Positions 1 to 57,377 of a stretch of 64,000 nucleotides of DNA are shown in pieces (the stretch's first letter is position 1; each line of letters begins with the position of its first letter). The stretch is from contig OZ242041.1 in NCBI GenBank assembly GCA_965205215.1, positions 1,600,001 to 1,664,000 on the forward strand, read 5' to 3'. The notes under the pieces are model-generated. The model saw nothing but the letters and a program-made list of their open reading frames with translations. It ran no database searches and was not told the DNA's origin. The translations under genes were made by a program, and so were the position numbers. This DNA comes from Nitrosopumilus sp. GTDB taxonomy: Archaea; Thermoproteota; Nitrososphaeria; Nitrososphaerales; Nitrosopumilaceae.

Positions 1-399
1 AACGCCGCATATCTTGGAGATCGTCAAAGATGATCACGGCGTTGGGCGGTGGCATCGGCGGCGGACGGGCTTCGCGCACCGCGATCGCATGAGGGAGGGC
101 GAGGGCGAACAGCATTAAGGTGCAGCCGGCGGCGGTGGCGGCGCCCGCGTACAGGGTGGCGCGCGGCAGAAGAGAGCCGGCAAGGACCTGCCCGGCGGTA
201 CGGGCCGCCTCCACGGCGCTGTCCAGTTTGGATTTTTTTGCCCCAGATCTGTGCTCGTTTTGATGCGTTCGTGCGCGTGGATGTGTCGAAATTTTCGCAG
301 ATCCGAGGGGCCGGCGGGGGGAAGACCCGGATTTTACGCGGCGGCCGTCGGTTTGTGCGCAGCATACGCTGGGCGTGGCCCGTCTGCGGGCCGAATGGA

Positions 400-1380
400 C
401 TATGCGACGAGGTTGTAGCAGATGCACCTGAGCACGAGCTGCAGCTCGCGCATGGCAAACGTCTTTGCGCGCGCGACCGCGCCGAACCTCTCCTTGATGA
501 CTGAGAACGCCGTCTCGACCAGGCTGCGCCGGTGGTATGCCTTGCCAAACCCCTCCGGGTCGTCGCGGCGCCACTTGAGCATCATACCCATGGCATGGAA
601 GCCGTTGGTCTTGGAGTTCTTTCTGGGGCATATCACCGGTGTGCGTCCGCTGCGCGCAATCATGTCGCAGTTTGCCCTGGCAAGGTATGCCGCGTCCAGT
701 ATGACGTGGCCATCACCCCGCGGCACCCGCCCGTACATCTCCCTGAATATTGGCGAGTCGTGCGTGCGGCCTGCAGTCACCATGCACGTGACTATCGCCC
801 CGTGCGGCGCCATCAGCACGTGCAGCTTGTCAAACTCGCGCCGGGATATGATGCCGCGCTTGGCGTCCTCCCAGTCCGCGTACTTTATGATGGAGAACCC
901 CGACGAGTCTCCCAGCAGCGTCCCGTGCGCGTCGTCCCCGGACTGGGCGCCCAGCAGCGCGATCACCGCGTCGATCCTGCCTGCAAGGTCCCTTGCCCAG
1001 CCGTGAAGCCCGGACTTTGATGGAACTTTTTTTAAGCCGTACATGTTTACAGAACCTGAGTGTTCGTTCATGTACGCAACGTGAACTCTGTACGAGTGGC
1101 TGTGGGATGTCATGTCCACGAGGCATGCGATCCTTGCAACCCCGTGCTCGTTGGCATCGTGGAAAGTATCGCGGATCAGATTGCGTAATCTCTTGATCCT
1201 GATCCTTTTCACCTTGCCTTCTTCTTTCCGCTTCCTCTCGTACATCTTGTAGTCCCGGCATCCCCTGATCTTCAGTCTGCGCTGCTCTGCCCTGCATGTC
1301 CGCACGTGTGCGTCCTGTCCCTTTCCATCGCTCGTTCTGCGTCTCTTGCCGCTCTTCTTCCTGCTCCTTTTGGAAGTCAT
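400..1380 (-). CDS. IS5-family DDE transposase
   Basis: Motifs GDSSGF, KLHVL, HDS, LDAAY, YHRRSLVETAFSVIK. ATG at 1380 preferred over GTG at 1419 because a TATA-like box lies about 29 nt upstream of 1380. Confidence 0.9.
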   Translation of the reverse strand: MTSKRSRKKSGKRRRTSDGKGQDAHVRTCRAEQRRLKIRGCRDYKMYERKRKEEGKVKRIRIKRLRNLIRDTFHDANEHGVARIACLVDMTSHSHSYRVHVAYMNEHSGSVNMYGLKKVPSKSGLHGWARDLAGRIDAVIALLGAQSGDDAHGTLLGDSSGFSIIKYADWEDAKRGIISRREFDKLHVLMAPHGAIVTCMVTAGRTHDSPIFREMYGRVPRGDGHVILDAAYLARANCDMIARSGRTPVICPRKNSKTNGFHAMGMMLKWRRDDPEGFGKAYHRRSLVETAFSVIKERFGAVARAKTFAMRELQLVLRCICYNLVA

Positions 1381-1396
1381 TGGCGTAGCGGCTACA

Positions 1397-1413
1397 ATAT
1401 GATCAATAAGCTT
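1397..1413 (-). promoter_or_regulatory. Putative BRE/TATA promoter of the IS5 transposase (AAGCTTATTGATCATAT on the coding strand)
   Basis: TTATT about 29 nt before the ATG; 16/17 identical to the motif upstream of the IS66 transposases; related copy at 1432-1445. Confidence 0.6.
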
Positions 1414-1526
1414 TGCCACACGGGCGCGCCGTGATCTTTAAGCTTTTCGTGACTTTGTCAGTAAAAAGTTGGACAGCGCCCGCCTCCACTAAAAGCACAT
1501 AAATCAAAGGCACGTACAGCAGCCTC

Positions 1527-16709: not shown

Positions 16710-16761
16710 CGATCGTAAAAAACGTAGTTTCTACAAAAAACAGCTCTATTTTTTACGATCG
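16710..16761. promoter_or_regulatory. 13-bp perfect inverted repeat upstream of an AT-rich promoter
   Basis: CGATCGTAAAAAA (16710-16722) / TTTTTTACGATCG (16749-16761), 26-bp spacer. Confidence 0.6.
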
Positions 16762-16819
16762 ATTTGTATAATTTTTTTAATATTAACCATTGAAAAATAG
16801 CCATAATTTCGATAAAAGC

Positions 16820-17452
16820 ATGGCAAGACCAAAAGCTACAAAGCGCAAGCCGGGCAGACCAGCCAAGAAGGCGACCGTTGCAAAGCGCAAGCCGGGCAGA
16901 CCAGCCAAGAAGGCTACTGCTGCAAAGAAGGCGACCGTTGCAAAGCGCAAGCCGGGCAGACCAGCCAAGAAGGCTACTGCTGCAAAGAAGGCGACCGTTG
17001 CAAAGCGCAAGCCGGGCAGACCAGCCAAGAAGGCTACTGCTGCAAAGAAGGCGACCGTTGCAAAGCGCAAGCCGGGCAGACCAGCCAAGAAGGCTACTGC
17101 TGCAAAGAAGGCGACCGTTGCAAAGCGCAAGCCGGGCAGACCAGCCAAGAAGGCTACTGCTGCAAAGAAGGCGACCGTTGCAAAGCGCAAGCCGGGCAGA
17201 CCAGCCAAGAAGGCTACTGCTGCAAAGAAGGCGACCGTTGCAAAGCGCAAGCCGGGCAGACCAGCCAAGAAGGCTACTGCTGCAAAGAAGGCGACCGTTG
17301 CAAAGCGCAAGCCGGGCAGACCAGCCAAGAAGGCTACTGCTGCAAAGAAGGCGACCGTTGCAAAGCGCAAGCCGGGCAGACCAGCCAAGAAGGCGACCGT
17401 TGCAAAGCGCAAGCCGGGCAGACCACCAGCAAAGGCCAAGAGCAAGAAGTAA
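16820..17452 (+). CDS. Highly basic H1/HMGA-like repeat protein with 11 AT-hook-like KRKPGRP motifs
   Basis: ATG after strongly AT-rich promoter, downstream terminator, K/A/R/P/T-dominated composition. Confidence 0.85.
   Translation: MARPKATKRKPGRPAKKATVAKRKPGRPAKKATAAKKATVAKRKPGRPAKKATAAKKATVAKRKPGRPAKKATAAKKATVAKRKPGRPAKKATAAKKATVAKRKPGRPAKKATAAKKATVAKRKPGRPAKKATAAKKATVAKRKPGRPAKKATAAKKATVAKRKPGRPAKKATAAKKATVAKRKPGRPAKKATVAKRKPGRPPAKAKSKK
16865..17394. repeat. Perfect 60-bp tandem repeat, about 8.8 copies
   Basis: Consecutive 60-nt lines are identical; encodes KKATVAKRKPGRPAKKATAA. Confidence 0.97.
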
Positions 17453-17477
17453 TACGAAACAGTGGCAGACCCACAAC

Positions 17478-17508
17478 CGTCGCTTTGGCGACGTGTTTTT
17501 CTTATTTT
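17478..17508 (+). terminator. Hairpin plus T-tract terminator
   Basis: CGTCGC-TTTG-GCGACG followed by TGTTTTTCTTATTTT. Confidence 0.6.
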
Positions 17509-17817
17509 AGTATCAGACAATGAAGTTTGGATGTGAAGCGGTTTTTCAACTGGAAGTAGGAGCAAGTCATGGCCGTTACCTTGGTTTCAATCAGATAGCG
17601 TTATGAATTCAATCAGGGCGGCACGCACCTGTACTGCATTCATCACATCACCGCCTGTGCATGACATAGGATGCACCAGCACAATCCACATCACAGCAGA
17701 GTGGCAAGGAGGCAAACAGGGTAAGAAAGGGCATGTCCAGACGACGCGCGGCAAAACAGCGGCACGGCCGGTCCCACCGGTCCAGAAGGCGGACAGTGCC
17801 GCAAGTAGTATCGCGGC

Positions 17818-19770
17818 CTAGTATAGATAGCTCATGAGCTTGATCTGCTCCTCGGTGTTTATGACTCCCTTGTTGGTGAGAATCTCCAGCAGATCCTTGA
17901 ATAGCGCCTTTTGTTCCGCAGACATTCCACCCGACGGTCCCTTCTCCCCGGGTAGCCCCGGTGGCCCGCGCGAGCCCTGCGGTCCCATGGGGCCCTGGGG
18001 GCCTTGGGGGCCCTGCTCACCGTCAGGGCCTGGCTGTCCCTTCGGACCGCGCTCGCCCTGTAGTCCCTGAATGCCCTGGGGGCCTTGGGGGCCCTTGTCT
18101 CCGGGCGGTCCTGGCGGGCCTCGCTCACCTTGCGAGCCCTGTGGGCCTTGGGGGCCCTTCTCCCCTGTAGGCCCCTGAGTACCGGTCTCTCCCTTGTCGC
18201 CCTGCGGGCCTACTGGGCCCTTGTCACCCTTGTCGCCCTGCGGTCCAGGCACTCCGGTAAGCCCCTTTGCACCGGCAGGGCCCTGTGGTCCCTGGGGGCC
18301 CTTTTCTCCTACAGGCCCCTGAGTACCGGTCTCTCCCTTGTCGCCCTGCGGGCCTACTGGGCCCTTGTCACCCTTGTCGCCCTGCGGTCCAGGCACTCCG
18401 GTAAGCCCCTTTGCACCGGCAGGGCCCTGTGGTCCCTGGGGGCCCTTGTCGCCGGTAGAGCCGGCCTGTCCTGGCGGGCCTGGCTCTCCGATCGGGCCCG
18501 GGGGTCCCTGAGAGCCCTTTTCACCCGGGATGCCTACTGGACCAGTCGCTCCTTTTTCACCCGGGGGGCCTATGGTTCCTGTGATGCCCTTGTCTCCGGG
18601 CGGGCCAGAGGGGCCCTTCTCGCCCTTGTCTCCGACAGAACCGCGCGGTCCCACGGGGCCCTTGTCTCCGGGCGGGCCCGTAATGCCGCGCTCTCCCTTG
18701 TCTCCGACGGGGCCCTTGAGGCCCACGGGGCCCTTGTCTCCGGGCGGGCCCGTAATGCCCTTGTCGCCCTTGTCTCCGGGCGGGCCCGTAATGCCCTTGT
18801 CGCCCTTGTCGCCCTTGTCGCCAGCTACGCCCTTGTCGCCCATAACGCCCCTTTCGCCCGTGGGGCCCTTGTCGCCCTTGTCGCCCTGCGGGCCTGCGGG
18901 GCCCTTGTCGCCCTTGGATCCCTTATCACCGGTAATGCCCTTGTCGCCGACGGGTCCCTTGTCCCCCGCAGGGCCCTTGTCGCCGACGGGTCCCTTGTCC
19001 CCCGCAGGGCCCTTGTCGCCGACGGGTCCCTTGTCCCCCGCAGGGCCCGTGGGCCCAGTGGCGCCGCGTCTTCCAACAGGACCAGGCATGCCGGCCGGAC
19101 CCTGAGGCCCCGAAGGACCCATGCGCCCGGCAGACGCAGCTGCGGCAGAATCAGGGATAGTGGAAGGGCGAGTGGTGCCGGCAGTCGCGCGGGTTGGAGA
19201 GTCCCAAGACGGCGGGGCGGGCTGAGGTGGCTGCGGGGGGCGGACGGGGCGCGGCCCGGATTGCGCGCCGGAAGGATCCCTTTCCTGTTTTCCAAGGGTG
19301 CCTTGCAAGTCTGCGGAGGAGTCAGCGGCCCCCCTCTGGGCGCCGTCTGCCGTTGTTCTTGTCGACCCCGGGGCAGGAGGGGGCGGAACCGGCCTCTTTT
19401 TGGCGGGAGTGCCAGCTGCCGCCTTCTTCTTCTGTGTGTCTTTGTCCGCCTTTGCAGCTTTCTGGGAAGACTCCAGCGGCACGTCAAATACGGAGTTTGC
19501 CGAGGAGAATATGTCAGATACTACAATCCACACCGTCGTGGAATTCTTGAGTGAGTCCGGAATCGGGTTTCCCTCCGAACCCAGCGTCTCTGAAAACTTG
19601 CCGTCCTCTACGCGCAGGTGAAAATGGTCGCTCCACAGGCTGTCAAACTTGTTGCGCCTGACGTCCTCTTCGGAAGGCTTTGATTTTGATATGGATATCT
19701 TGACCTCGTACACGCCAGGCTTCACAAACGGAGCCTTGCCGCTAACCTTGAGGCCGGGCTTTAGTGACAC
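17818..19770 (-). CDS. Collagen-like protein (about 134 Gly-X-Y triplets)
   Basis: Gly-X-Y run spanning 17923-19128, globular N-domain, short helical C-domain. Confidence 0.92.
18169..18447. repeat. 135-bp direct repeat (period 144) within the collagen gene
   Basis: 18169-18303 matches 18313-18447. Confidence 0.8.
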
Positions 19771-28099: not shown

Positions 28100-29750
28100 G
28101 TATAGACTCAGGTCGCCACGTCTCATGATTCGAGCATATGTGAAGGACCGTCTCAGCATGTGGCGGCGACAGAGGGCACCGCCGTTGTAGCCTGTACCAG
28201 CCGTTCGACGCGCTCCGGGCAGTCGGGCGGTTTGAATATGCGCCAGTCAGGATCCTCGATCATGCGCTCCACCGCCATACGCGGGAACACACCCATCTTC
28301 TGGCACGTGCGCGCGACGGACACCAGCACGGAGAACACGTGGCGCCCGTCGGGTTCTGACAGCTGGTGGCGCACGTTGCGGTGCAGCACGACGGTATCGC
28401 GTATTTCCAGCTCGGCGGCGTTGTTATGGGGCGGCATGCCCGGACATCTGAGGAACGTGAACAGGTGCGGGGCGGCGTTCTCCAGCGTCTCGCGGAACCC
28501 GTGACCCTTTTTGTAGCCCGACGCTATGCGCAGCACGGCCCTCTCCAGGTTTAGGCACTCGGCGCCGTCCGCCGACTCGCGGCTTTTGATCCTCCGGTAC
28601 ATGGAGAGCAGCCTGCGGTAGCACGACAGGTCGTCCCCGCCGTTTCTCACGGCGTATTTCTCGGCCTCGCGCAGTATGTGGGCCCAGCAGCGCTGCCTGA
28701 CCGGGAGCATGCCGTACGCGACATATCCGTCCGTGACGGCCGGCATGCCCAGCAGGCCGCCAAAGTGCAGCTCCAGTACGGCCGCGGCCCTGCTCGGGGC
28801 CGCCACGATATACGTGGCGTCCCCTGTAGTCGCCAGCCATACGTACCCCCTCTTGCCGTTCATCCTGATAACCGACTCGTCGAACTGGACGAACGCGGCG
28901 CGCGAGATCCTCTCTAGGATGCCGTCGTACGCGGCCCCGAGCAGGTTCCTTATCGCCCTGCGCGCGTTCCAGACCGCGTTTGCGGACACCGAAAAGCCGT
29001 AGAGCGCCCGGAAATAGTACGATATGGTCGAGTCAGTCGACCTCTTGGCGTAGTATTCGAGTATGAACCCTAGGGCCCTCGGGCCGAACGACGTGCCGGG
29101 CGGCAGGGGAGCCGGGGCGGTGCTGACCGCGCTGCACCTCCTGCAGAATCCGCGCTCGAGCACGTACGCGACCGTCTCGATGCACCTGCTGCTTTCATCC
29201 GGAAAGTCGTTTACGATTCTCGTGACGGGGGCCGCGTACGCGAGGTGGCCACGCCCACAGTTCCGGCACCGGTACAGGCGCATGCGCTCCCTCCTCGAGG
29301 GCCTGTTACCGTGGGACGCGCCCTCGTGCCCCTCCGGAGGCCCGCTGCGCCTGCCCGCCGCGCTTTCTTTCGGTTCAGGTCCGCCCCCGTCCCCCTCCTC
29401 TTCTGCCAGCCTCTTCCGGAACGCGTCGCGCTCCGCGTTGTATATGGAACCCGTGGAGGACGGCGCGTTCGGGCTCTCGTATTTGGCCAGCCTCCTGTCC
29501 TGCTCTGCAATAGTCTCCATAAGCAGGTCTATCTGCTCCTCAAGGCCGGCCCTTATCCTGTCACGCTCGGCCTCCACCCGGGCGACTGCATCCTGCAGCC
29601 TCTTGATCTCCGCCATCATCTTGGCCATCTCCCGACGCAGCAGTGCCGTCTCGGAATCGCCCATGGACAATTTGCAGAATATATGATCTATAAGCTTGTC
29701 GGCCTGCCAGAGTTGCCAACAGGGTCACAGGCATGGACGTGAGTCCATAC
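28100..29750 (-). mobile_element. IS66-family (single-ORF, ISBst12-like) element, copy 1, 1651 bp
   Basis: Inverted termini GTATAGACTCAGGTC vs GTATGGACTCACGTC (13/15); 8-bp TSD GATCTGTT at 28092-28099 and 29751-29758. Confidence 0.95.
28153..29664 (-). CDS. IS66-family transposase (TnpC-like)
   Basis: Coiled coil, Zn finger, FDES, TDGY, QRCWAHILR, NNAAE.EIR; ATG 29664 preferred over TTG 29670. Confidence 0.93.
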   Translation of the reverse strand: MGDSETALLRREMAKMMAEIKRLQDAVARVEAERDRIRAGLEEQIDLLMETIAEQDRRLAKYESPNAPSSTGSIYNAERDAFRKRLAEEEGDGGGPEPKESAAGRRSGPPEGHEGASHGNRPSRRERMRLYRCRNCGRGHLAYAAPVTRIVNDFPDESSRCIETVAYVLERGFCRRCSAVSTAPAPLPPGTSFGPRALGFILEYYAKRSTDSTISYYFRALYGFSVSANAVWNARRAIRNLLGAAYDGILERISRAAFVQFDESVIRMNGKRGYVWLATTGDATYIVAAPSRAAAVLELHFGGLLGMPAVTDGYVAYGMLPVRQRCWAHILREAEKYAVRNGGDDLSCYRRLLSMYRRIKSRESADGAECLNLERAVLRIASGYKKGHGFRETLENAAPHLFTFLRCPGMPPHNNAAELEIRDTVVLHRNVRHQLSEPDGRHVFSVLVSVARTCQKMGVFPRMAVERMIEDPDWRIFKPPDCPERVERLVQATTAVPSVAATC

Positions 29751-46651: not shown

Positions 46652-46894
46652 TCACCCACAGTCAATAATCTCAACTGCCGGACTGCACATGTCGTTGAAC
46701 CTGTATATGTCGCTTAAAAGATCGAGACAGAATTCCGGATCCAAGGTTTCATGATACGTATCAAGCCCCCGAAGAATCTCCATATGGGACAACCCACACG
46801 AATCGACGGAAAATGCAAGTGCTACAACAACGGATGCGACAAGCACTGCAACCAGTAAGACAGCATGCCGGGCACTAACGCTTGGAAATGTCAA
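46652..46894 (-). CDS. Small hypothetical membrane-anchored protein
   Basis: N-terminal hydrophobic helix, 4 Cys; overlaps the end of the Alba gene. Confidence 0.6.
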
Positions 46895-48188
46895 TTTCCA
46901 TTGTGGAAACGTTGCGATGCTTGCCGTCGTTTGATATGAGCGAGTCAGAAGATATCCTCACGTCGCTTATCGTATACCCCACAGTGTCCATTCGCTTGAT
47001 AATCATCTGCGAGACGTCCACTGCGTTGGTGATCTTCTTGCCCCTTGCCTTTATTGTCACCGTGTCCTGGTTTGCAAGCTGAGTAAGTGTGGCAGAGACA
47101 TATGTCATTATGGGCTTGCTGCCCACAAATATGACATCCCTCATTGAAGAGGATTCGGAGCTAGCAGCGGTCTCAGGCGATGGTTCTGGCGCGGTGGCGG
47201 TCTCAGGTGATGGTTCTGGCGATGGTTCAGGCGCGGGCTCTGGCGATGGTTCAGGCGCGGGCTCTGGCGATGGTTCAGGCGCGGGCTCTGGCGATGGTTC
47301 AGGCGCGGGCTCTGGCGATGGTTCAGGCGCGGGCTCTGGCGATGGTTCAGGCGCGGGCTCTGGCGATGGTTCAGGCGCGGGCTCTGGCGATGGTTCAGGC
47401 GCGGGCTCTGGCGATGGTTCAGGCGCGGGCTCTGGCGATGGTTCAGGCGCGGGCTCTGGCGATGGTTCAGGCGCGGGCTCTGGCGATGGTTCAGGCGCGG
47501 GCTCTGGCGATGGTTCAGGCGCGGGCTCTGGCGATGGTTCAGGCGCGGGCTCTGGCGATGGTTCAGGCGCGGGCTCTGGCGATGGTTCAGGCGCGGGCTC
47601 TGGCGATGGTTCAGGCGCGGGCTCTGGCGATGGTTCAGGCGCGGTGGCGGTCTCAGGCGATGGTTCAGGCGATGGTTCAGGCGATGGTTCTGGCGCGGTG
47701 GCGGTCTCAGGCGATGGTTCTGGCGCGGGCTCTGGCGCGGTGGCGGTCTCAGGCGATGGTTCTGGCGCGGTGGCGGTCTCAGGCGATGGTTCTGGCGATG
47801 GTTCTGGCGATGGTTCTGGCGCGGTGGCGGTCTCAGGCGATGGTTCTGGCGCGGGCTCTGGCGATGGTTCTGGCGCGGTGGCGGTCTCAGGCGATGGTTC
47901 TGGCGCGGGCTCTGGCGATGGTTCTGGCGCGGTGGCGGTCTCAGGCGCGGGTTCAGGCGATGGTTCTGGCGCGGTGGCGGTCTCAGTGTCATCGCGGTAC
48001 ACGGATGAAGCGTCGTCAGGGGTACAAGCACACCCAGAGTCGTGTCCGGCATGTGGCACATCTTCTGCAGACCCAATTCCAGAAGGTTCGTCAGGTGTGC
48101 TCGTATTGGTAGATATCTCAGACTGTGTTTTAGAGGTAAATTCGGACAATATCTCTTCGGCATCGGTTGACTTCTTCTCGCCGTACAT
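46875..48188 (-). CDS. Alba-domain protein with a long acidic Pro/Glu-rich N-terminal extension
   Basis: C-terminal [12 protein letters not shown]...IKARG..I..AVDV...RNVSTMEI Alba signature. Confidence 0.9.
47167..47985. repeat. Tandem repeat region; core of 17.8 perfect 24-bp units (47218-47644) plus mixed 12/15-bp modules
   Basis: (GGCGATGGTTCAGGCGCGGGCTCT)n, encoding PEPAPEPS on the minus strand. Confidence 0.95.
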
Positions 48189-55726: not shown

Positions 55727-57377
55727 GTATAGACTCAGGTCGCCACGTCTCATGATTCGAGCATATGTGAAGGACCGTCTCAGCATGTGGCGGCGACAGA
55801 GGGCACCGCCGTTGTAGCCTGTACCAGCCGTTCGACGCGCTCCGGGCAGTCGGGCGGTTTGAATATGCGCCAGTCAGGATCCTCGATCATGCGCTCCACC
55901 GCCATACGCGGGAACACACCCATCTTCTGGCACGTGCGCGCGACGGACACCAGCACGGAGAACACGTGGCGCCCGTCGGGTTCTGACAGCTGGTGGCGCA
56001 CGTTGCGGTGCAGCACGACGGTATCGCGTATTTCCAGCTCGGCGGCGTTGTTATGGGGCGGCATGCCCGGACATCTGAGGAACGTGAACAGGTGCGGGGC
56101 GGCGTTCTCCAGCGTCTCGCGGAACCCGTGACCCTTTTTGTAGCCCGACGCTATGCGCAGCACGGCCCTCTCCAGGTTTAGGCACTCGGCGCCGTCCGCC
56201 GACTCGCGGCTTTTGATCCTCCGGTACATGGAGAGCAGCCTGCGGTAGCACGACAGGTCGTCCCCGCCGTTTCTCACGGCGTATTTCTCGGCCTCGCGCA
56301 GTATGTGGGCCCAGCAGCGCTGCCTGACCGGGAGCATGCCGTACGCGACATATCCGTCCGTGACGGCCGGCATGCCCAGCAGGCCGCCAAAGTGCAGCTC
56401 CAGTACGGCCGCGGCCCTGCTCGGGGCCGCCACGATATACGTGGCGTCCCCTGTAGTCGCCAGCCATACGTACCCCCTCTTGCCGTTCATCCTGATAACC
56501 GACTCGTCGAACTGGACGAACGCGGCGCGCGAGATCCTCTCTAGGATGCCGTCGTACGCGGCCCCGAGCAGGTTCCTTATCGCCCTGCGCGCGTTCCAGA
56601 CCGCGTTTGCGGACACCGAAAAGCCGTAGAGCGCCCGGAAATAGTACGATATGGTCGAGTCAGTCGACCTCTTGGCGTAGTATTCGAGTATGAACCCTAG
56701 GGCCCTCGGGCCGAACGACGTGCCGGGCGGCAGGGGAGCCGGGGCGGTGCTGACCGCGCTGCACCTCCTGCAGAATCCGCGCTCGAGCACGTACGCGACC
56801 GTCTCGATGCACCTGCTGCTTTCATCCGGAAAGTCGTTTACGATTCTCGTGACGGGGGCCGCGTACGCGAGGTGGCCACGCCCACAGTTCCGGCACCGGT
56901 ACAGGCGCATGCGCTCCCTCCTCGAGGGCCTGTTACCGTGGGACGCGCCCTCGTGCCCCTCCGGAGGCCCGCTGCGCCTGCCCGCCGCGCTTTCTTTCGG
57001 TTCAGGTCCGCCCCCGTCCCCCTCCTCTTCTGCCAGCCTCTTCCGGAACGCGTCGCGCTCCGCGTTGTATATGGAACCCGTGGAGGACGGCGCGTTCGGG
57101 CTCTCGTATTTGGCCAGCCTCCTGTCCTGCTCTGCAATAGTCTCCATAAGCAGGTCTATCTGCTCCTCAAGGCCGGCCCTTATCCTGTCACGCTCGGCCT
57201 CCACCCGGGCGACTGCATCCTGCAGCCTCTTGATCTCCGCCATCATCTTGGCCATCTCCCGACGCAGCAGTGCCGTCTCGGAATCGCCCATGGACAATTT
57301 GCAGAATATATGATCTATAAGCTTGTCGGCCTGCCAGAGTTGCCAACAGGGTCACAGGCATGGACGTGAGTCCATAC
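55727..57377 (-). mobile_element. IS66-family element, copy 2 (apparently identical to copy 1)
   Basis: Same termini; 8-bp TSD ATGCACGA at 55719-55726 and 57378-57385; constant offset of 27627 from copy 1. Confidence 0.95.
55780..57291 (-). CDS. IS66-family transposase
   Basis: Translation identical to copy 1. Confidence 0.93.
   Translation of the reverse strand: MGDSETALLRREMAKMMAEIKRLQDAVARVEAERDRIRAGLEEQIDLLMETIAEQDRRLAKYESPNAPSSTGSIYNAERDAFRKRLAEEEGDGGGPEPKESAAGRRSGPPEGHEGASHGNRPSRRERMRLYRCRNCGRGHLAYAAPVTRIVNDFPDESSRCIETVAYVLERGFCRRCSAVSTAPAPLPPGTSFGPRALGFILEYYAKRSTDSTISYYFRALYGFSVSANAVWNARRAIRNLLGAAYDGILERISRAAFVQFDESVIRMNGKRGYVWLATTGDATYIVAAPSRAAAVLELHFGGLLGMPAVTDGYVAYGMLPVRQRCWAHILREAEKYAVRNGGDDLSCYRRLLSMYRRIKSRESADGAECLNLERAVLRIASGYKKGHGFRETLENAAPHLFTFLRCPGMPPHNNAAELEIRDTVVLHRNVRHQLSEPDGRHVFSVLVSVARTCQKMGVFPRMAVERMIEDPDWRIFKPPDCPERVERLVQATTAVPSVAATC

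Follow-up and report, generated by a model that had tools for sequence, protein, structure and literature searches.

Why should the transposase genes of unrelated insertion sequences (IS) in one archaeal genome be preceded by the same promoter motif? The question arose from a sequence-only reading of the window, by which we mean the whole 64,000-nucleotide stretch analyzed here (bases 1,600,001–1,664,000 of a Nitrosopumilus genome, a single contig of 2,098,239 bp with 60% G+C). That reading had noticed a 17-bp motif ahead of IS5 and IS66 transposases and proposed that these elements had converged on, or captured, one host regulon. The coordinates, the 16/17 identity and the 16-nt distance to the ATG that it gave were all correct in our pattern scan of the window. 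The features concerned are the following.

215..1480, minus strand: whole IS5-like element, 1266 bp, with inverted ends and a 9-bp target duplication (206–214 / 1481–1489)
400..1380, minus strand: IS5-like transposase gene, 326 aa, Pfam DDE_Tnp_1
1397..1413, minus strand: predicted core promoter motif of the IS5-like element, AAGCTTATTGATCATAT, 17 nt, with AGCT at about −32 and GATC at −24 from the ATG
1432..1445, minus strand: second, upstream motif copy within the IS5-like element, AAGCTTAAAGATCA, 32 nt 5′ of the first copy
28100..29750, minus strand: IS66-like element copy 1, 1651 bp, with an 8-bp target duplication
28153..29664, minus strand: IS66-like copy 1 transposase gene, 503 aa, Pfam DDE_Tnp_IS66, the only long frame of the element
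29681..29697, minus strand: predicted core promoter motif of IS66-like copy 1, AAGCTTATAGATCATAT, 17 nt
55727..57377, minus strand: IS66-like element copy 2, same sequence as copy 1, with an 8-bp target duplication different from that of copy 1
55780..57291, minus strand: IS66-like copy 2 transposase gene, 503 aa
57308..57324, minus strand: predicted core promoter motif of IS66-like copy 2, 17 nt

Searching the window for AAGCTTATWGATCATAT with up to two mismatches returned exactly three matches, all on the minus strand (sites at 1397, 29681, and 57308), while none of 100 shuffles of the window gave any. The 17-mer reads AAGCTTATWGATC(ATAT); its W is T at 1397–1413 and A at 29681–29697 and 57308–57324, which accounts for the 16/17 identity, and 16 nt separate each copy from the transposase ATG (1380, 29664, and 57291). 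The proteins read from these ATGs (326, 503, and 503 aa) are unrelated at the family level, as had been claimed, with Pfam matches to DDE_Tnp_1 for the IS5-like transposase (64.2 bits) and to DDE_Tnp_IS66 for the IS66-like one (76.4 bits). The two IS66-like copies are identical 1651-bp elements and were therefore scored as a single observation. Inverted ends and target duplications were present in all three window copies, the duplications being 9 bp for the IS5-like element and 8 bp, differing by site, for the IS66-like copies, and the motifs lie 54–84 nt inward of the left IS ends, outside the terminal repeats.

The first element fits the IS5 family by its DDE_Tnp_1 domain, inverted ends, and target duplication; the other two fit the IS66 family by DDE_Tnp_IS66, inverted ends, and an 8-bp target duplication, the length typical of that family. 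Unlike classical IS66 elements, they lack accessory tnpA and tnpB genes and contain just the 503-aa frame, preceded by 86 nt, and we take them to resemble the single-gene IS66 subgroup. The upstream motif copy of the IS5-like element is retained in relatives and is the sole copy in the most distant ones. Elsewhere in the window we observed several repeat arrays: a low-complexity protein gene (frame 46875–48188) carries ~55 copies of a tandem 12-nt unit (24-nt super-unit, core 92–98% alike, repeats at 47083–47700), and a 60-nt tandem array of 11 copies, some 100% alike, lies in the region of 16742–17527 and 17948–19040, adjoining a minus-strand 650-aa frame full of G/C-rich repeats with a 9-nt period, whose translation would be collagen-like Gly-X-Y.

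Genome-wide, the 17-mer has nine exact matches and its first 13 bases, AAGCTTATWGATC, have twelve. Listing the downstream genes, as had been suggested, placed all 12 exact 13-mer sites in IS copies or IS remnants belonging to three unrelated families:

IS5-like: two copies and one internally deleted remnant
IS66-like: six copies, two of them in tandem
IS630-like: two copies and one remnant

The third element, found outside the window, fits the IS630 family by its DDE_3 transposase and N-terminal helix-turn-helix domains. Among the four 13-mer matches with one mismatch, three are IS-borne (two upstream IS5-like motif copies and one diverged IS630-like copy) and one is unassigned. In all three families the AT-rich box begins at −29 and is preceded by A-rich bases at −34/−33, matching the host pattern, and the motif copies of this genome have AGCT at the junction of the BRE and the TATA box. 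Identity between families ends abruptly at the motif edges. Four other IS types occur in this genome: types B and G, which are related, have GATC 5′ of the box; a TnpB element (type F) has GATC only at −18; and type E, whose start codon is ambiguous, has no recognisable box–GATC site.

Some features of these copies and of the genome around them were recorded as side observations. The tandem IS66-like dimer (genome 870560–873869) consists of identical head-to-tail copies whose spacer is the same eight bases that precede the first copy. In the IS5-like remnant near genome position 114411, an internally deleted copy, the motif is joined straight to the C-terminal part of the transposase. Long segments at ~630–678 kb and 1898–1988 kb are duplicated at 86–98% identity over ~40 kb in total, representing either one large segmental duplication or a pair of related integrated elements.

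To set a baseline, ~1,390 likely genes were called by a crude codon-usage method. AT-rich 8-mers before in-frame host ATGs numbered 373, 445, and 408 at −31 to −29, against a background of ~90–110, and host promoters (n = 554) showed A at a frequency of 0.44–0.49 at −34/−33 and C at 0.57 at −1. Judged by these positional counts, transcripts in this genome appear to be leaderless as a rule, with a BRE/TATA some 30 nt ahead of the ATG, and the motif is predicted to be the BRE/TATA core promoter of leaderless transposase mRNAs. The placement of a BRE/TATA at leaderless spacing in the sequence-only reading was thus sound, with the box at −29 and the host peak at −30/−29. The weight it gave to the identical spacing was not borne out: because host AT-rich boxes peak at −30/−29 genome-wide, the spacing of the IS motifs is uninformative.

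The same comparison separated the ordinary part of the motif from the unusual one. An AGCT that starts at −34 to −30 is present in 11 of the 545 host promoters, within boxes like AAGCTTAWW, and the AAGCTT half of the motif is an ordinary host BRE/TATA junction; with the bases around it, the upstream half AAAGCTT-AT would make a good host-type junction. In its position, AT-rich box, and A-rich BRE, the motif matches the generic archaeal leaderless core promoter (BRE and TATA ~26–30 nt before the start site). Unlike that promoter, the IS box has a G at −24 within GATC: among the 545 host promoters GATC starts at −24 in none, at −25 in one, and at −23 in two, and G at −24 has a frequency of only 0.07. 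The GATC abutting the TATA box at about −24 is the IS-specific part of the motif. The earlier proposal of a conserved 8-bp element beyond the generic promoter therefore stands for its GATC and falls for the full GATCATAT as a conserved unit.

These counts also bear on the possibility that AT-rich promoters simply resemble each other by chance, which could be entertained given that TATA boxes are of low complexity and that the spacing is common to all leaderless promoters. However, no shuffled window gave a match, the 13-mer is expected at 7e-7 per promoter from the product of the host-promoter column frequencies, and the motif is repeated in three families of this genome, its GATC in at least ten genomes. 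Shuffles, expected frequency, and recurrence together exclude chance, to which we assign a practically negligible probability; as far as sequence comparison can tell, the sharing of the motif among unrelated IS is supported as a result of selection.

We then turned to the homologous IS of relatives. The exact 13-mer occurred once in each of five out of 40 related genomes, in AT-rich sequence and with no transposase frame, and we read these single matches as chance; this search says little, because short-read assemblies usually lose IS. A protein-guided scan of the species-genome collection with the IS66-like transposase located 11 loci, of which 10 are full length, distributed over four further Nitrosopumilaceae assemblies. 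In relatives with 89% protein identity the box is TTATAGATCATAT, next to either AAGC or another BRE half; at 57–64% identity the box is TTTATTGATC, ahead of a GTG start; and in one variant the GATC instead lies 5′ of the box. The same four assemblies hold dozens of IS5-like and IS630-like homologues. IS5-like relatives carry AAGCTTAWWGATC at 70–76% identity and AAAGTTTTGGATC or AAGCTTAAAGATC at 46–54%, and the IS630-like box and GATC are kept from 92% down to 36–37% identity, with the remaining upstream region unalignable. A fourth lineage, a distant IS5-like clade (~30% identity), shows an AT-rich box, GATC, four bases, and again GATC. Across homologues with a conserved GATC, protein identities descend to 31–37%, and the convergence claimed for two unrelated IS proved both real and wider, extending to the IS630-like family and to this fourth lineage in relatives. 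In two of the related assemblies (G042 and G043), the IS630-like query by itself matched 136 and 53 times, indicating a massive IS expansion.

To place the GATC, start codons were assigned mechanically, as the in-frame ATG nearest the aligned N-terminus, or else GTG or TTG. Under this rule GATC was located at −25 to −23 in 26 of 31 distinct upstream variants; the five misses comprise the variant with a 5′-side GATC, one lost start codon, one deletion variant, and two cases in which the rule settled on a nearby start codon. When the search was widened to 301 genomes of the order, IS630-like genes turned up in 21 of them. Nine of the 15 further Nitrosopumilaceae IS630-like loci, from six genera, had GATC at −25 to −23, as did none of the three homologues from another family of the order (f15), two of which are broken genes. 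When all searches were pooled with one locus per variant, GATC was found at −26 to −22 in 30 of 36 loci, from four lineages and at least ten Nitrosopumilaceae genomes, a ratio that overstates the independent support because copies within a family are kin and the independent units are the three to four lineages. At least four IS lineages (IS5-like, the distant IS5-like clade, IS66-like, and IS630-like) appear from these alignments to have kept or independently acquired the GATC. One further candidate, an integrase-bearing repeat with an AT-rich box and GATC before a short frame, was dropped as support when its duplicate copy was found to read GAGC.

The 30 GATC-bearing loci give the consensus GAAAAG-YTTWT-N-GATC-A, in which the tetranucleotide GATC is the only invariant part. 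The base before it is T in 13 loci, A in nine, and G in eight, and the base after it is A in 21, G in seven, and T in two; in the BRE, A is the most frequent base, followed by G, at the three positions lying 10 to 8 nt before GATC. A second GATC, 7–8 nt downstream of the first, is often present and recurs in all four lineages. The variable bases beside GATC mean that a 4-bp recognition site fits better than a longer operator.

Such an operator is nevertheless one way to explain the consensus: GAAAAG-YTTWT-N-GATCA might be recognized by a specific pair of TFB and TBP paralogues or by a dedicated DNA-binding regulator, giving a shared, methylation-independent IS programme. The genome carries five TFB and two TBP genes, and the element coincides exactly with the stretch from the BRE through the TATA box to the first downstream bases, where TFB touches the DNA in archaeal initiation. 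The frequent A after GATC (21/30) also speaks for such a site, and the exact 13-mer common to three families in one host would fit tuning to one host factor. The sequence-only reading had supposed a host regulon. A genome scan for an AT-rich 5-mer plus GATC, followed 22–25 nt later by the start codon of a frame of 80 aa or more, gave 43 matches, of which 11 were IS copies, a share that rose to 11 of 15 at exactly 24 nt. The 10 genes annotated among the 32 non-IS matches were heterogeneous with no common theme, including a secreted repeat protein, an OLD-type nuclease, CorA, and an aminotransferase. The host promoters closest to the 13-mer differ from it at three positions (3/545) and none is closer; the motif is not common before ordinary host genes, where a wide occurrence had been named as a possible refutation. 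Among these promoters and annotated genes the single host regulon was not found, and we rejected it. It also counts against a factor that only a 4-bp palindrome is invariant while its neighbours vary. For an oriented protein site, it is odd that GATC lies on the opposite side of the box in one relative of the IS66-like element and in two further IS types of this genome. We consider a dedicated factor rather unlikely.

A second alternative involves no switch at all. The motif could be a deliberately weak TATA box (G at box position 6–7) behind a strong BRE, inherited or swapped between elements as a cassette and kept since low constitutive transposase expression is optimal. G or C in the box is rare among host promoters, as the frequency at −24 illustrates, and the motif is clearly inherited within each family. 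Weak transposase promoters are moreover described as the rule for IS10 and IS50 in the accessible text of PMC4265352. Yet there are many ways to weaken a box, and four lineages share the same tetranucleotide at the same three positions, often with the second GATC 7–8 nt further on. The IS66-like copies of two hosts differ in their BRE half and still keep TTATAGATCATAT. As for cassette exchange, between-family identity stops at the motif edges, with no longer tract marking recent recombination, and in several hosts each family shows a long-established version of its own; a recent exchange of promoters among IS was hence set aside as unlikely. To the weak-box explanation as a whole we attach a low probability.

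A bare conserved tetranucleotide which is also a documented methylation site in Nitrosopumilaceae points more to DNA methylation than to a TFB paralogue or repressor. According to the accessible parts of PMC6329791, a Nitrosoarchaeum genome is methylated at 98.2% of GATC sites (m6A) and 96.0% of AGCT sites (m4C) and has two solitary methyltransferases; the same two motifs are reported for Nitrosomarinus catalina, with the description 'likely evolutionarily conserved'. A review, as far as its accessible text goes, agrees on GATC/AGCT methylation and ties the GATC enzyme to a Nitrosopumilus maritimus gene (PMC11033074). The present genome holds three D12-class and seven N6_N4 methyltransferase genes, among them the following.

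152800..153729 of the genome, minus strand: Dam-family methyltransferase gene (TIGR00571, 269.8 bits against a cut-off of 114.85)

Single orthologues of this Dam-family enzyme, 53–60% identical, were found in 23 of 24 same-genus genomes, and the N6_N4 gene at 97778–98434 is 67–73% identical to a ~264-aa enzyme of same-genus genomes. Judging from this orthology and from the papers on relatives, the enzymes of this genome would methylate GATC and AGCT. Genome-wide, GATC is neither avoided nor enriched (observed/expected 1.02) and AGCT is enriched (1.34). Beside these enzymes, we observed that the Dam-family gene adjoins a frame at 153930–154580 whose N-terminal sequence looks like ammonia monooxygenase C subunit, and that a second D12-class gene overlaps by four bases a 316-aa gene without an NCBIfam match (genome 543863–545598), a pair that may be a restriction-modification pair.

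In archaeal initiation, TFB and TBP grip and bend the DNA at the BRE/TATA positions. Candidate methylation sites thus fall at the grip points of both factors, which leads us to interpret the motif as a core promoter sensitive to methylation and as the archaeal equivalent of the Dam-controlled IS10 and IS50 promoters; this reading, drawn by analogy, is a tentative one that we hold at slightly short of an even chance. GATC would occupy the last base pairs of the TBP site, with a second GATC often between the box and the start site, and its position at the 3′ edge of the TATA box would make the promoter sensitive to the genome-wide GATC adenine methylation of the host. AGCT at the BRE/TATA junction might add sensitivity to cytosine methylation in GC-rich hosts. 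Transposase would then be made mainly from an unmethylated or hemimethylated site, a state expected immediately behind replication or when the element enters a new cell. TBP reads the minor groove, and an effect of N6-methyladenine at a TATA-edge GATC is plausible; we know of no archaeon with a demonstrated effect at such a promoter position. We infer both the methylation of the sites in this organism and its effect on TBP/TFB binding or promoter opening.

Three observations count against a role of methylation. The IS630-like copies of f15 lack GATC despite the D12-class methyltransferases of those genomes, which is mildly against it; not every IS type of this genome has the site; and only nine of the 15 further Nitrosopumilaceae IS630-like loci have GATC in the strict window. 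A D12-class methylase was found in all ten further genomes carrying IS630-like elements, so that a comparison with methylase-free hosts cannot discriminate. Taken at its fullest, the methylation-sensitive promoter would mean that unrelated Nitrosopumilaceae IS converged on an epigenetically gated core promoter, in which m6A at GATC controls TBP/TFB assembly, m4C at AGCT contributes in some hosts, and housekeeping methylases time or silence transposition; for this more specific version we would go only as far as calling it possible, somewhat below even.

The nearest known systems are bacterial. In E. coli, as described in the accessible text of PMC4265352 and PMC5371812, Dam methylation of promoter GATC sites limits transposase transcription of IS10 and IS50, the latter having two GATC, and hemimethylation behind the replication fork relieves this block. 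Like IS10 (Tn10) and IS50 (Tn5) in these accounts, the elements studied here are unrelated IS in which a GATC lies within a core element of the transposase promoter, and as in their host, a solitary genome-wide GATC methylase would be at hand, here a Dam-family gene with a specificity assigned by orthology. The same logic would couple transposase synthesis to replication or to new-host entry. Unlike those systems, the promoter is an archaeal BRE/TATA read by TBP/TFB and not a sigma-70 −10 box; the mRNA is predicted to be leaderless, and AGCT (m4C) may be involved as a second methylation motif. The one terminal repeat in which we saw a GATC is that at the right end of the IS630-like element (genome 997767–998881), where the left repeat has GCTC, an asymmetry that recalls the methylation-sensitive inside end of IS10. 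Our literature search, made by title or abstract and with subscription journals mostly outside its coverage, found nothing on methylation sites in archaeal IS promoters.

If true, the epigenetically gated IS promoter would give DNA methylation its first role at an archaeal BRE/TATA promoter and would mean that the IS10/IS50 strategy had been reinvented independently. Marine ammonia oxidisers have conserved solitary methylases for GATC and AGCT, and promoter sites at a fixed position would provide a testable handle on their role. Some related genomes hold many dozens of copies of these IS, and a gating of transposase would bear on how such expansions start and stop. Whichever mechanism holds, three unrelated IS with 13 identical promoter bases in one host, together with a GATC position common to four lineages across genera, make a clean case of selection on a non-coding element and offer archaeal transcription work a well-defined promoter.
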